Shown: one piece after another, positions 7,199-10,518 of the stretch
Numbering within the stretch: the stretch's first letter is position 1
Layout: every line of letters starts with the position of its first letter
DNA from: Acidobacteriota bacterium
Lineage (GTDB): Bacteria; Acidobacteriota; UBA890; WLXD01
Reading direction: 5' to 3'
Length of the DNA stretch: 64,000 bases
Assembly: GCA_965205505.1 (NCBI GenBank)
Contig: CBDBHB010000009.1
Span: 2,240,001-2,304,000, forward strand
Notes under the pieces: model-generated
Seen by the model: the letters and a program-made list of their open reading frames with translations, nothing else
Told to the model about the DNA's origin: nothing
Databases searched by the model: none
Program-made: the position numbers and the translations under genes

Positions 7199-9427
7199 AT
7201 GTTGTCGACCGACCGACGTAAGTCCAACTCTAGTCTGCCACGCACGGCCTTCCGTGGTTGCCTGGCTGCGGCAATGCTGTTGTCGGCATTACCCGGACGA
7301 GGCGAGGTACCAGGGGCGAACGGCCCACGCGGTTTCCAGGCCCCATGGGGTGCCGCCATCGAGCGCGAGCTGCGCCTCGCGGCCATTCCCGACACCGACC
7401 GCTTGCGCACCATGGCGCATCGACTTGGCAGTGAGGCAAGGGTAGCGGGCACGCCAGCTGCAGCCCGCGCCGCCGGCGAGATCGCCGACCTCATGGCCGG
7501 CTGGGGCCTCGAGGTCTCGGTGCATGAGTACGACGTATTGTTGCCGCACGCGCTGTCGGCGCGAGTGGATCGCCTCTCGCCGCTGCCGCTGACGCTGGGG
7601 CTCGAGGAGGAACCGCTCCCCGAGGACACGGCCAGCGGTGTGAGCCAATATCCAGCAGTGGCGGCGTACTCGGCCGCTGGTGATGTCGAGGCAGGCGTGG
7701 TCTACGCCAACTATGGGAGAGAGGCTGACTTCGCCGCGCTGCGGGCGCTACGTGTCGACACTGTCGGCAAGATCATCGTGATGCGATACGGCCAGGTGTT
7801 TCGCGGCGCCAAGGTTCACAATGCCGAGGCGGCCGGCGCGGCAGCCGTATTGCTGTACTCAGATCCGTTGGACGACGGCTACTTCCGCGGCGACGTGTAT
7901 CCGATCGGTCCGTTCCGGCCGTGGACAGGTGTGCAGCGCGGCTCCGTGCGCACTGGACCACCGGGTGATCCGAACACGCCGGGCCGGCCCGCGACCGCTG
8001 GCGCCGCAGTAGCCGGCCAGCCGACACCTGCCACGCCCCTTACGTCGATCCCGGTCGTCGCTCTGGGCTACGGGTCGGCGGCGGAGCTGCTGCGACATCT
8101 GGTCGGCACCGAGGTCCCGGCGGGCTGGCAGGGGGCGCTGCCCTTCCGCTATCACGTCGGCGGCGCCGGTGTTCGGGCGCGCGTGCTCGTCGAGCTCGAT
8201 GAAACCTCGGTGCGGAGAATCCGCAACGTCGTGGGGACGCTTCGCGGACGCGAGCGGCCACAGGAGTGGGTAATCCTCGGCGCGCATTACGACTCCTGGA
8301 CGGTTGGCGCGGTGGACAATCTTTCGGGCACGGTGGCGATGCTGGAGGCTGCACGGGCGCTCGCAAAGCTGAGCGCCGCCGGCTGGCCGCCGCGTCGCAG
8401 CATCTTGTTCGCCGCGTGGGACGCCGAGGAGTGGGGCTTGATCGGTTCCACCGAATGGACCGAGGCGCATGCGGACCAGCTTCGCAGCTCCGCGGTCGCG
8501 TACATCAACCTCGACGGAGTCGTTGGTGGTCCCTACTTCTCCGCCACCGCATCGCCTTCTTTGCGCACGCTCATCCGCTCTGCGACGCGAGTAGTCGCGG
8601 ACCCGACGTTACCGACCACCAGCATCTACGACTCTTGGCGCCGGCGTGCGTCTATGTTGCCCAGCGGTGAGCCTCGGGTGCCACTACCGGCGGGTGGCTC
8701 CGACGACGCGACGTTCGCGGCTGTGCTCGGCGTGCCAACCGTCGGGATCGGATTCTCGGGAAGCTCGGGGATATACCACTCTGCCTACGACACTCACGCG
8801 TTCGTGGACCGATTCGGCGATCCTGGCTATCGTCAGCACCGCGCCGTAGCCGCCCTTGCCGCGGTCCTCTGTGGGCGGCTGGCCAGCGCAGACGTGCTGC
8901 CGTTCGACTACCGTGACCAGGCGGCAGAGCTGGCGACGGCGATGGGCAGCGTCGATGCTGCTATCGCCGGGCCCGGGGGAAATGCCCGTAGCGCCGGTAC
9001 CGAGCTCGTTTGGCGGGCTCTCGGCAGCTTGGCGGCGGCCGCCGGCGAGCTAGAGGCCAATACACGCCAGGTGCTGCAGCGAGCATCGGCCGGCGCGGGG
9101 CCGGTAGGATTGCAGCGGGTTAACGATCACTTGCTACGGGTCGAGAGGGCGTTTACCCGGCCTGGCGGACTCTCGGCACGCCCTTGGTTCAAAAACATAT
9201 TCTATGCTCCCTCTGGCGGCGATCTGTATGCTGCCGAGCTGTTACCTGGGGTTCAGCGCGCGCTCCGCCGTGACGATGATGGAGCGCTCGCCAGGGAGCT
9301 CGACGATTTGGCGTCATCGATTCGTGCCGCCGCAGTCGAGCTCGTGGCGTCGGCGGTGAGCCTGCGAGCTGCTGCTGATGCGCGCGTTGCCGCGAACTTG
9401 ATCCCCGGGCAGGCCTCCACTCAGTAG
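7199..9427 (+). CDS. M28 metallopeptidase, glutamate carboxypeptidase II type (PA domain plus TFR dimerisation domain)
   Basis: GAHYDSW, GAVDN, WDAEEWGLIGS, YINLD, GGSDD, YHSAYD, RPWFKN. Confidence 0.9.
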   Translation: MLSTDRRKSNSSLPRTAFRGCLAAAMLLSALPGRGEVPGANGPRGFQAPWGAAIERELRLAAIPDTDRLRTMAHRLGSEARVAGTPAAARAAGEIADLMAGWGLEVSVHEYDVLLPHALSARVDRLSPLPLTLGLEEEPLPEDTASGVSQYPAVAAYSAAGDVEAGVVYANYGREADFAALRALRVDTVGKIIVMRYGQVFRGAKVHNAEAAGAAAVLLYSDPLDDGYFRGDVYPIGPFRPWTGVQRGSVRTGPPGDPNTPGRPATAGAAVAGQPTPATPLTSIPVVALGYGSAAELLRHLVGTEVPAGWQGALPFRYHVGGAGVRARVLVELDETSVRRIRNVVGTLRGRERPQEWVILGAHYDSWTVGAVDNLSGTVAMLEAARALAKLSAAGWPPRRSILFAAWDAEEWGLIGSTEWTEAHADQLRSSAVAYINLDGVVGGPYFSATASPSLRTLIRSATRVVADPTLPTTSIYDSWRRRASMLPSGEPRVPLPAGGSDDATFAAVLGVPTVGIGFSGSSGIYHSAYDTHAFVDRFGDPGYRQHRAVAALAAVLCGRLASADVLPFDYRDQAAELATAMGSVDAAIAGPGGNARSAGTELVWRALGSLAAAAGELEANTRQVLQRASAGAGPVGLQRVNDHLLRVERAFTRPGGLSARPWFKNIFYAPSGGDLYAAELLPGVQRALRRDDDGALARELDDLASSIRAAAVELVASAVSLRAAADARVAANLIPGQASTQ

Positions 9428-9439
9428 TGGTCAACGAAA

Positions 9440-9729
9440 GACGGAACGGGCGATCCCCACGAACAGCCTCCACGCAGTACGGCCGTTGGCACCGGCCAAT
9501 CGGGCTCGGAACGAGGTCTGCCCCTTTCGCCAAGTTCACACCGGCCCGCGCGTGGCTTCGGAAACCCGACCAGTAAGCCTCCCGTCCGATGTGCAGTCGG
9601 GGCTGCGCCGCACATCGGTGTTACCGGCGCCCTGACGGACGAGCCATGTTGCGAAGCGGTATCGCCTGATTGTCGTAGCCGGACACCGCAGGCGCGCGCC
9701 GCGCGGCCATGAGGATCGCCCGAACCGCC
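9440..9729 (-). ncRNA. Putative ~290-nt highly structured non-coding RNA of unknown family
   Basis: Ends (9707-9729 and 9440-9462) form a 23-bp helix with 21 pairs, including G-U pairs that form only on the minus strand; several internal helices; TTGACA-N16-CATAAT directly upstream; no credible ORF. Confidence 0.7.
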
Positions 9730-9733
9730 CCTG

Positions 9734-9761
9734 ATTATGGCCGCGTGGCCGCGCTTGTCAA
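9734..9761 (-). promoter_or_regulatory. Sigma70-type promoter of the putative ncRNA
   Basis: Minus strand TTGACA (9761-9756), 16-bp spacer, CATAAT (9739-9734). Confidence 0.7.
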
Positions 9762-9842
9762 CCGGATGCTGCGCGGCGTTGTTCCGGGCCGCCGGATCCC
9801 GAAAGCGCCTTTGGTAAGGGGCTCTGTGGGCCGGTCGCCGCC

Positions 9843-9871
9843 TTGAGCTTTGCCTCATTTCCGGATATGAT
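9843..9871 (+). promoter_or_regulatory. Sigma70-type promoter of carD
   Basis: TTGAGC-N17-TATGAT about 55 bp upstream of the carD TTG start. Confidence 0.55.
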
Positions 9872-9924
9872 GTCAACTGCCGCCCAGTCCGCAGCAACCT
9901 ACCTAACAACACCGGGAGAGCCCT

Positions 9925-10458
9925 TTGCGCTTTGAAGTCGGCGACCATGTCGTCTATCCGAACCATGGCGTGGGGATTATCGAGGACGTCAAGCGGACCC
10001 AAATCGCGGGGCTCGATCAAGACTTCTACCATCTCCGGCTCTTCGCCAACGAAACCACGGTGATGGTGCCGGTTGGCAACTCCAAGGCGGTCGGGCTACG
10101 AAAGATCTTCGGTAAGACGCAGATCAGAAGGCTATTCAAGCATCTGCGCGACCCCGACTTCGAGACACATAGCAACTGGAAGGGCCGGTACAAGGAGAAC
10201 GCCGAGAAAATGCGCTCGGGTCATCTCTTTGAGATGGCGGACGTTCTCAAGAACCTACAGCACCTGACGCAGCGCAAGGCGCTCTCCTATCGCGAGAAGC
10301 GCATGTACGATCAGGCCAAGCATCTGATCATCTCCGAGATCGCCATGGTGCAGGGGCGTTCAGAGGAGATCGTGCAACCGGACGTCGAGGCGGCCCTCGA
10401 TGATTGTATCGAGGCGCGCAAGCAGTCCGGCGACCACGATCGCGCCAAGGCTTCCTGA
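9925..10458 (+). CDS. carD: CarD/CdnL family RNA-polymerase-binding transcription factor
   Basis: FEVGDHVVYPNHGVGII, VMVPV...VGLRK, NWKGRYKEN, LSYREKRMY; TTG start with ggag RBS. Confidence 0.93.
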   Translation: MRFEVGDHVVYPNHGVGIIEDVKRTQIAGLDQDFYHLRLFANETTVMVPVGNSKAVGLRKIFGKTQIRRLFKHLRDPDFETHSNWKGRYKENAEKMRSGHLFEMADVLKNLQHLTQRKALSYREKRMYDQAKHLIISEIAMVQGRSEEIVQPDVEAALDDCIEARKQSGDHDRAKAS

Positions 10459-10482
10459 GTCAGGCTGGCACGCGCACGTCTC

Positions 10483-10518
10483 GCTCCGGGCGACCGCCGG
10501 TCTCCCGGAGCTTTTTTT
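10483..10518 (+). terminator. Rho-independent terminator after carD
   Basis: gctccggg...cccggagc stem followed by a T7 run. Confidence 0.85.

Follow-up and report, generated by a model that had tools for sequence, protein, structure and literature searches.

The 497-nucleotide (nt) gap between carD and an M28 peptidase gene, in a 64,000-nt stretch of an Acidobacteriota genome (GCA_965205505.1, contig CBDBHB010000009.1, positions 2,240,001 to 2,304,000; hereafter the window), holds an RNA gene of ~290 nt on the minus strand, at window positions 9440-9729. That the gene is genuine, that its RNA is structured and expressed, and that it belongs to a new family we regard as close to certain. The RNA matches no Rfam family, and it is the founding example of an undescribed family restricted to one order of Acidobacteriota. 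A first-pass annotation of the window, made from the sequence alone, had proposed a structured RNA here, divergent from carD and with a promoter of its own. It is conservation, covariation and expression that carry the case for an RNA gene, and not the single-sequence fold by itself. As for function, the best single hypothesis, to which we assign a probability of about 0.35, is that the RNA has an RNA-polymerase-associated role like that of 6S, Ms1 or CoRP.

A DNA search over 61 related genomes returned full-length copies at 88-95% identity in the same genus and partial matches throughout the family, and the order peptidase-gap-carD was kept in all nine loci first examined. A covariance model (R1), built from a nine-sequence alignment of the long forms, found a single copy of 286-300 nt, scoring 192-302 bits, in 10 of the 11 genomes of the target's family. 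The only family genome without a match is 71% complete and has another gene directly upstream of its carD. In all 12 distinct long-form loci, carD lies divergently ~200 nt upstream of the RNA and an M28 peptidase gene lies downstream in convergent orientation. When the gaps are aligned, the 5' and 3' arms of the RNA vary in concert (G to A with C to U; UU to CC opposite GG), and several internal blocks are nearly invariant. Comparing the carD upstream regions of relatives by means of a covariance model had been put forward in the first-pass annotation as a check, and it brought out a conserved locus in which compensatory changes are present. A metagenome scan gave seven loci, comprising two new variants (one of them found twice), two duplicates of known genomes and two chance matches to coding DNA. 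A contig-wide pattern scan was overly degenerate and gave at least 117 stretches; among the 80 matches listed, seven were real, all duplicating known genomes, and the scan is uninformative on other phyla.

The linkage to carD reaches beyond the family. Three sister-family genomes, from two genera, carry a 336-352-nt member in the gap upstream of carD, with a GGTTGACA promoter, a GGGAGGCCG motif, a GGCCGACAGGGGCCGAC block resembling the one in the target, and a closing stem in which both strands have been replaced; R1 missed all three. The carD linkage thereby spans two families while the gene on the opposite flank differs. No such element is seen at the other seven carD loci of the sister family, which come from five additional genera. 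Two of the carD-upstream gaps, both from genus g7 (L246 and L250, 390-440 nt), lack the family hallmarks and share long conserved blocks with each other; in these two genomes of one genus the blocks may be another RNA or may reflect just close relatedness. Besides the carD that adjoins the RNA, genome G005 has a second, divergent carD-like gene with 49% identity to the CarD of the target locus (L255, contig 5, 1587187-1587687).

The near-consensus minus-strand promoter described in the first-pass annotation withstood closer analysis. TTGACA (9761-9756) and CATAAT (9739-9734), separated by 16 nt, match the sigma-70 consensus at 11 of 12 positions, and a promoter scan of 9000-10200 returned two sites, against 0.3 ± 0.6 in shuffled sequences, the second being a site on the carD side. 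Across nine of nine aligned family genomes, the GGTTGAC of the -35 region is invariant and the -10 hexamer is conserved. The transcript is predicted to start with GGCGGUUCGGG at 9729. The 5' end of the RNA is thus inferred from the promoter, and the 3' end was placed at the end of the closing helix, ahead of a weak T-run. A simple terminator scan called no terminator after the closing helix; the T-run beyond the 3' arm is weak in the target and is a clear U5-U7 run in other genera. The RNA is transcribed divergently from carD and towards the convergent peptidase gene, with the 3' end of the RNA 10-13 nt before the peptidase stop codon, so that no gene on the same strand lies downstream. The gap had been called free of open reading frames (ORFs), which is right in effect but not literally, since a 203-residue minus-strand ORF (9421-10032) spans the region. 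That ORF overlaps the RNA gene but begins upstream of the RNA promoter, and it is not conserved: other genera do not retain its AUG, and the aligned indels have lengths not divisible by three. A small protein was considered as well; a 28-codon AUG frame found by hand translation in G000, the genome that holds the window, was rejected for lack of conservation, since other genera are without its AUG and G004 has a 4-nt indel.

Taken by itself, the single-sequence fold is weakly better than chance. The minus strand has a minimum free energy (MFE) of -148.9 kcal/mol (z = -2.0, with 7 of 200 shuffles as good), while the plus strand reaches z = -0.28, with 72 of 200 shuffles as good, in agreement with the minus-strand orientation that the first pass had assigned. 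Comparison between sequences is more informative. From a plain MAFFT alignment of nine sequences, RNAalifold derived 71 pairs, of which 22 still pair after changes on both sides. Over 12 distinct sequences, 24 of the 71 model pairs are changed on both sides, compared with 12.9 ± 2.0 in shuffles (none of 500 reaches 24) and 4-11 when the partner strand is slid. In the same set 91.5% of cells are paired; the figure is 86.2% for shuffles and 34-47% when partners are slid. As the 12-sequence alignment was fitted to the model and is hence favoured, the MAFFT-only count (22 of 71) serves as the independent check.

Poor alignment between genera defeats counts made by column, so regions were cofolded sequence by sequence. 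Columns 26-61 with 246-273 form 15-21 pairs in 12 of 12 cofolds, at -27 to -39 kcal/mol versus -12 to -20 kcal/mol when the strands are folded apart. Columns 72-88 with 185-203 form 8-11 pairs, again in 12 of 12, by means of quite different sequences across genera. For this second region, a sequence's own partner beats the shuffled mean in every case; 18-27 of 200 shuffles were as good in three sequences, and none of 200 in the three most divergent ones. What is left of the 3' stretch folds into a hairpin, closed by GAACG/CGUUC, in which the conserved GGGGCAGACCUCGUUC block lies. A 6S-like bubble made of columns 72-88 and 185-235 was rejected, because in all 12 cofolds the strands that RNAalifold leaves unpaired pair with one another. 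Folding G000 with only the well-supported helices enforced pairs 73% of the RNA and gives -146.2 kcal/mol, no more than 2.7 kcal/mol above the unconstrained optimum. The RNA as modelled is a rod with almost no interruption (P1-P2-P3-P4-P5-P5b-P6), from which P7, P8-P9 and P10 branch off.

Several helices of this model were already named in the first-pass annotation, and they fared unequally. The terminal helix (P1) had been described with 21 of 23 pairs; a hand count agrees and the MFE fold reproduces it. Its claimed inner end (AUGG with UCGU) is not conserved, and what is conserved there is a 5-nt bulge on the 3' side followed by UGGCC/GGCYG. In the sister-family version each strand of P1 has been replaced in full. 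Three of the six helices named stand: the terminal one, CCGCGCGG/CUGCGUGG (74.5% of cells paired, and part of the rod seen in 12 of 12 sequences) and CCGAUGUGC/GCACAUCGG (89.7% of cells paired). For the other three, GCGGUGUC/GAUACCGC, GGCGCCGG/CCGGUGCC and UGGUCGGGUU/AGCCCGAUUG, the paired share of cells is 60%, 78% and 69%, respectively; their covariation is at the level of shuffles (199 of 500 as high), they compete with better-supported helices, and they were dropped. Among the helices of the model, P5 has seven of nine pairs changed on both sides, and P8 pairs in 100% of cells with four of seven pairs changed on both sides. The GGCUG that makes up the 3' strand of P2 belongs to a signature in which GGAGGC is invariant in the nine-sequence alignment, and a further, internal copy of GGGAGGC lies in the apical domain.

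The ~90-nt apical domain and P10 are elaborate enough to raise the question of whether the RNA works through its own fold, as a ribozyme, a sensor of a ligand or metabolite, or an architectural RNA, in the manner of other large bacterial RNAs that long had no assigned role. Both combine covarying helices with junctions holding a near-invariant AACACCG, the AGCCCCGAC loop, GGGAGGCUUAC and GGGGCAGACCUCGUUC, and a possible pseudoknot would fit the same picture. Nothing points to a substrate or a ligand, the pseudoknot is without covariation proof, and paralogs (described below) swap the whole apical domain and keep the ends. With the apical domain replaced and the ends retained, the conserved function seems to reside in the ends, and we consider a role of this kind unlikely. 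Within the domain itself, the GCCCC of the P9 loop (window 9586-9618) is complementary to a GGGGC of the P10 region (~9510-9520), both conserved and both on the minus strand, and in one relative two C to U changes in the P9 loop would keep wobble pairing with G; a loop-to-strand pseudoknot between GCCCC and GGGGC is possible.

Part of the RNA sequence occurs in 14 metatranscriptome runs from seven studies, and eight runs from two of these studies hold 65-90% of the sampled words. The evidence for expression comes from four runs, two per study, placed on window positions 8900-10500; runs with a word share of 0.30-0.40 were not used. Each of the four gave one contig of 258-304 nt, covering 9446-9720, 9457-9720, 9456-9713 and 9465-9715, with no mismatches and a word depth of 70-100. 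In all four runs 8900-9439 and 9764-10033 are uncovered, and carD was seen once, at a depth of 5.9. DNA contamination would have covered the flanks too, so the contigs stem from RNA. We conclude that the RNA is expressed as a discrete, abundant transcript. A transcript had been proposed as a check in the first pass, and the contigs cover the RNA alone, to within 6-25 nt of its predicted ends. This evidence is limited in that assembled contigs give neither the strand, nor exact ends, nor true levels, and in that three of the four have a chimeric loose end.

These data bear on three other explanations of the locus. That the locus is transcriptional noise, or a fold arising by chance in intergenic DNA rich in GC, would sit well with the marginal single-sequence fold (z = -2.0), and is refuted by conservation over four genera and the sister family, by the compensatory changes, by the conserved promoter and by transcript-sized contigs in two studies. 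The RNA could also be a cis element of carD or of the peptidase gene, that is, a leader, an antisense RNA or a long untranslated region, a notion encouraged by the tight, conserved adjacency to carD and by back-to-back promoters 82 base pairs apart. However, it is transcribed away from carD and ends before the peptidase stop, there is no downstream gene on its strand, the RNA contigs leave the flanks uncovered, and homologous members stand in unrelated contexts; this explanation is largely refuted and very improbable. Somewhat easier to entertain, though still quite unlikely, is a small RNA that acts in trans by pairing with mRNAs, possibly that of carD, through conserved loops. Its own promoter, the U-tail in most genera and the conserved single-stranded loops would agree with such an activity, but a length of 290 nt with ~73% of it paired is atypical for an RNA that pairs through a seed, and the RNA overlaps neither neighbouring gene. 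Pairing with the carD leader was rejected, as the complementarity found by eye is 7 nt long and is not conserved.

We searched Rfam 15 (4227 models) both at the gathering score and at E <= 10. At the gathering score the whole 64-kilobase window contains only three tRNAs, and at E <= 10 the region 9300-9950 has only two chance matches to microRNA models, at E 2-3.2. This search, too, had been suggested in the first pass, and no family, 6S included, matches the RNA. Nor does the RNA match Acido-1 or Acido-Lenti-1, which are named in PMC2864571 and both have Rfam models. Searches of open-access text on 6S or non-coding RNA in Acidobacteriota found no earlier description of it; the drawings in the additional file of PMC2864571 might hold a related motif outside Rfam. 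The first-pass annotation had set aside RNase P RNA, signal recognition particle RNA and transfer-messenger RNA for want of their hallmarks, and rightly so: genes for all three were found elsewhere in the genome. Coordinates of the RNA, its parts and its neighbours are collected in Table 1.

Table 1. The RNA gene, its predicted structural parts and the adjoining features, in window coordinates.
Feature	Position	Strand	Basis
RNA gene, ~290 nt	9440..9729	-	R1 match 9435-9729, 290.1 bits; four RNA-library contigs, 0 mismatches
-35 hexamer TTGACA	9756..9761	-	Promoter scan; GGTTGAC invariant in 9/9 aligned family genomes
-10 hexamer CATAAT, preceded by 16-nt spacer	9734..9739	-	Promoter scan; ATAAT-like hexamer kept in alignment
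P1 closing helix, 5' strand (RNA 1-19)	9711..9729	-	13 pairs, 98.1% of cells paired, 3 changed on both sides
P1 closing helix, 3' strand (RNA 272-290)	9440..9458	-	MFE fold, RNAalifold, covariation count
P2, 5' strand UGGCC	9705..9709	-	98.3% paired; G-U to G-C changes in 6/12
3'-strand signature, UGGA then GGCUG (GGGAGGC in nearly all relatives)	9464..9471	-	Motif in 24/24 members compared
Modelled rod, 5' strand P3-P5b (RNA ~26-88)	9642..9704	-	Cofolds with 15-21 and 8-11 pairs, each 12/12
Modelled rod, 3' strand (P5b, P5, P4, P3), and side hairpin P10 with GGGGCAGACCUCGUUC (RNA ~180-257)	9473..9550	-	Cofolds; block conserved
Modelled apical domain: P6, hairpin P7, P8 arm CCGGUAA/UUACUGG, P9 hairpin with AGCCCCGAC loop	9551..9641	-	Helices 5-8 of the 12-sequence covariation count
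Weak T-run past closing helix	9431..9439	-	Sequence; U5-U7 in other genera
carD-side promoter-like site TTGAGC-17-TATGAT	9843..9871	+	9/12 consensus matches; block conserved in alignment; 82 base pairs from the RNA -35, back to back
carD (CarD RID and CarD_C domains)	9925..10458	+	ORF list, Pfam
M28 peptidase with PA and TFR-dimer domains	7199..9427	+	ORF list, Pfam

The RNA beside carD is one member of a larger family defined by its ends. A comparison of 24 members shows that they have in common a closing stem whose sequence is free, a CCCNGGCC:GGCCG helix with a conserved 3' bulge, (A)UCGYGG, and an invariant GGGAGGC, and around this end module their interiors span 106 to 515 nt. The target has the module with the minor variant UGGAGGCUG and has its own sigma-70 promoter. 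Through its ends, R1 also matches forms of ~180 nt in 9 of 15 sister-family genomes, at 26-46 bits. These short forms (179-183 nt) have TTGACA-N17-TAxxxT promoters, A-rich upstream tracts, rod-like folds and U6-U7 tails, and fall into two paralogous types; folded separately, 17 of 54 pairs covary in type a and 28 of 55 in type b. In both types covarying arms flank an internal loop of invariant sequence; the loop measures roughly 12 x 9 nt in type a and is smaller than the canonical 6S bubble. Type a (L047, L048, L058) converges on a gene for a redoxin/AhpC-like protein of ~103 residues. Downstream of type b (L056, L059, L052), at a distance of ~240-270 nt and in the same orientation, is a gene for an HtrA-like (trypsin-PDZ) protease.

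A second model (R2), built from the short forms only, found short forms in five of five sampled sister-family genomes, and among 139 other Acidobacteriota gave three borderline matches of 20-22 bits. In a focused search, R2 detected a 181-nt form (77.6 bits) in G005, a genome of the target's own family, and it weakly re-finds the long locus in four of five genomes (E 0.0025-0.14). A second locus in G000, G003 and G007 encodes a member of 458-515 nt with type-b-like ends; it lies on contig 9 of G000 at 1583140-1583602 (plus strand; L219:1141-1603), in G003 at L221:1146-1603 (minus) and in G007 at L220:1128-1642 (minus). These long paralogs have a U7 tail and many GCAA-capped hairpins (CCCGCAAGGG) separated by purine-rich GGAAG or GGAGG linkers, and from this sequence pattern they look like a protein sponge, though G000 is without CsrA. 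The smallest members, of 106 nt, occur in G011, G012 and G015 (L207:1501-1606 and L208:1501-1606 on the minus strand, L200:1501-1606 on the plus strand); they keep GGGAGGCGAUCGUGG but pair it in a shifted register. That the sequence of the motif is held despite a shifted pairing register suggests that it is recognized by sequence, and not only as a helix.

Such recognition is what one would expect of a scaffold or sponge for some protein other than RNA polymerase, for example a nuclease, a chaperone or an unknown RNA-binding protein, with the end module as the binding site and the interiors as paralog-specific cargo. We view this as a tentative explanation that comes close behind the polymerase role. 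The invariance of GGGAGGC and the adjoining bulge across the register shift points to sequence-specific recognition, the constant module encloses interiors of widely differing length, 106 to 515 nt, and the GCAA-capped hairpins and GGA-rich linkers of the 458-515-nt paralogs resemble known protein sponges. Two familiar classes of RNA come to mind. Y RNAs, whose Ro60 protein is usually encoded next to them, have a conserved stem formed from both ends, a variable interior and a 3' U-run, structural features that the family shares, and Csr sponges have repeated hairpins with GGA motifs, as do the 458-515-nt paralogs with their GGA-rich linkers. However, neither CsrA (PF02599) nor Ro60/TROVE (PF05731) was found in G000, which is 96.3% complete, and the target matches no Rfam Y-RNA or Csr family and by hand count has about four GGA triplets. 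As the partner genes were not found, the CsrA-sponge and Y-RNA readings are weakened, and we reject them for G000. It also counts against a scaffold for another protein that the only conserved protein-gene neighbour is carD, the gene of an initiation factor that binds RNA polymerase.

The case for an RNA-polymerase-associated role starts from three observations: 6S is undetected in the order, the short relatives are 6S-like, and the linkage to carD is deep. The 6S model (Rfam RF00013, gathering score 46.4 bits) matches none of the 26 genomes of the order, and at E <= 10 it has no match in 9300-9950 of the window nor in five genomes of the order. Outside the order, in two samples of other Acidobacteriota, it matches 24 of 35 and 95 of 139 genomes, and it works in GC-rich genomes too, with one example at 72% GC. 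Elsewhere in the phylum, the canonical 6S has no U-tail of its own and is followed directly by rny in the same orientation (L062-L065 and further loci; three of the RNase Y proteins were confirmed by Pfam, and at a fourth locus the ORFs show the same layout), an arrangement suggesting that the phylum's canonical 6S is co-transcribed with rny and processed. At the rny loci of five genomes of the order there is neither 6S nor a family RNA alongside. We propose that the target acts in trans as a protein-binding RNA, the transcription machinery being its likeliest partner. As a lineage-specific counterpart of 6S, Ms1 and CoRP, it would bind RNA polymerase, either as holoenzyme or as core, through the end module and the rod, and the unique apical domain and the conserved carD linkage may adapt this paralog to a CarD-related aspect of initiation.

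Several points weigh against a polymerase-binding RNA of this sort. RF00013 misses the target and the short forms even at E <= 10, and, conversely, R1 applied to 20 canonical 6S loci gave no match at the 6S position in any of them. The target has no central bubble, either in the 12 of 12 sequences or in the fold with enforced helices, and the central-loop motifs that the short forms conserve are missing from it. Genomes can have up to four family members (G011), unlike 6S. G005 holds both a short and a long form, which makes the long RNA a paralog and not the 6S replacement itself. Of the 21 carD-bearing genomes of the order, eight have no such RNA upstream of carD. Finally, 6S misses are not unique to the order, since RF00013 matches 0 of 10 genomes in family f20, 1 of 9 in f30, 0 of 4 in f7, 0 of 3 in f8 and 0 of 3 in f24; the 6S-negative families of the phylum may hide divergent 6S forms or replacement RNAs. 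Direct homology to true 6S was rejected: the models fail in both directions, and synteny differs, with rny next to 6S and an HtrA-like protease or redoxin gene next to the short forms.

A more specific version of the polymerase hypothesis has two parts. The modular end-module family would have replaced 6S in the order, with the ~180-nt forms as the 6S equivalents, and the carD-linked member of 290-350 nt would be a new regulator that binds polymerase or CarD and ties the supply of CarD to the polymerase pool through the back-to-back promoters. We think this combination conceivable but doubtful.

Large bacterial RNAs with a complex fold and no known function are rare, and several of them later proved to be new biology. 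The setting of this one is a little-studied phylum, an order without detectable 6S and a neighbouring gene for an initiation factor that binds polymerase. The relatives of 106-515 nt amount to a natural 'deletion series' that separates the constant end module from exchangeable interiors. Should the partner be something other than polymerase, the invariant GGGAGGC module would mark an unknown RNA-protein system. The family is ready for submission to Rfam, which would improve the annotation of these genomes.

How does the new RNA compare with the RNAs that are known to bind RNA polymerase? Like 6S, the target is a stand-alone, abundant RNA with a strong housekeeping-type promoter and with its ends paired in a long closing arm. 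Its ~180-nt relatives match 6S in size and in having two arms around a conserved central internal loop, and they number up to two main paralogs per genome; Bacillus likewise has two main 6S paralogs per genome. In 6S, a large central bubble between the closing and the terminal arm mimics an open promoter, and the RNA binds the sigma-70/sigma-A holoenzyme and serves as template for pRNA synthesis. Unlike 6S (~160-200 nt), the target is 286-300 nt long, ~110 nt longer, shows no similarity to 6S in sequence or by covariance model, and adjoins carD instead of rny, and its family has up to four members per genome with interiors of 106-515 nt.

Both 6S and Ms1 are defined by binding, to the holoenzyme and to the core RNA polymerase, respectively, according to PMC9130861. 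As described there, the Ms1 of Actinobacteria is a ~300-nt RNA of a lineage without 6S, with a central bubble and short terminal hairpins, and it was traced by conserved synteny, its neighbour being a gene for a HAD hydrolase (PMC9130861). The target agrees with this description in being ~300 nt long and highly structured, in belonging to a lineage without 6S and in its conserved synteny. It differs in having neither a bubble nor terminal hairpins, its two ends instead pairing with each other, in phylum and in gene neighbours, and, if Rfam holds an Ms1 model, in having no match to it. CoRP of Corynebacterium glutamicum, as described in PMC11077062, is an abundant 516-nt intergenic RNA that binds polymerase in a lineage without 6S and Ms1, lies between tRNA genes and is cleaved into two fragments. 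Compared by this description, the target is likewise a lineage-specific, abundant and long intergenic RNA; polymerase binding is experimental for CoRP, unlike in the target, for which it is a hypothesis. With Ms1 at ~300 nt and CoRP at 516 nt both reported in these sources to bind polymerase, the size of the target alone is no objection. If it does bind polymerase, the RNA beside carD would join 6S, Ms1 and CoRP as one more class of RNA that regulates polymerase, and it would be the first to be genetically linked to CarD.

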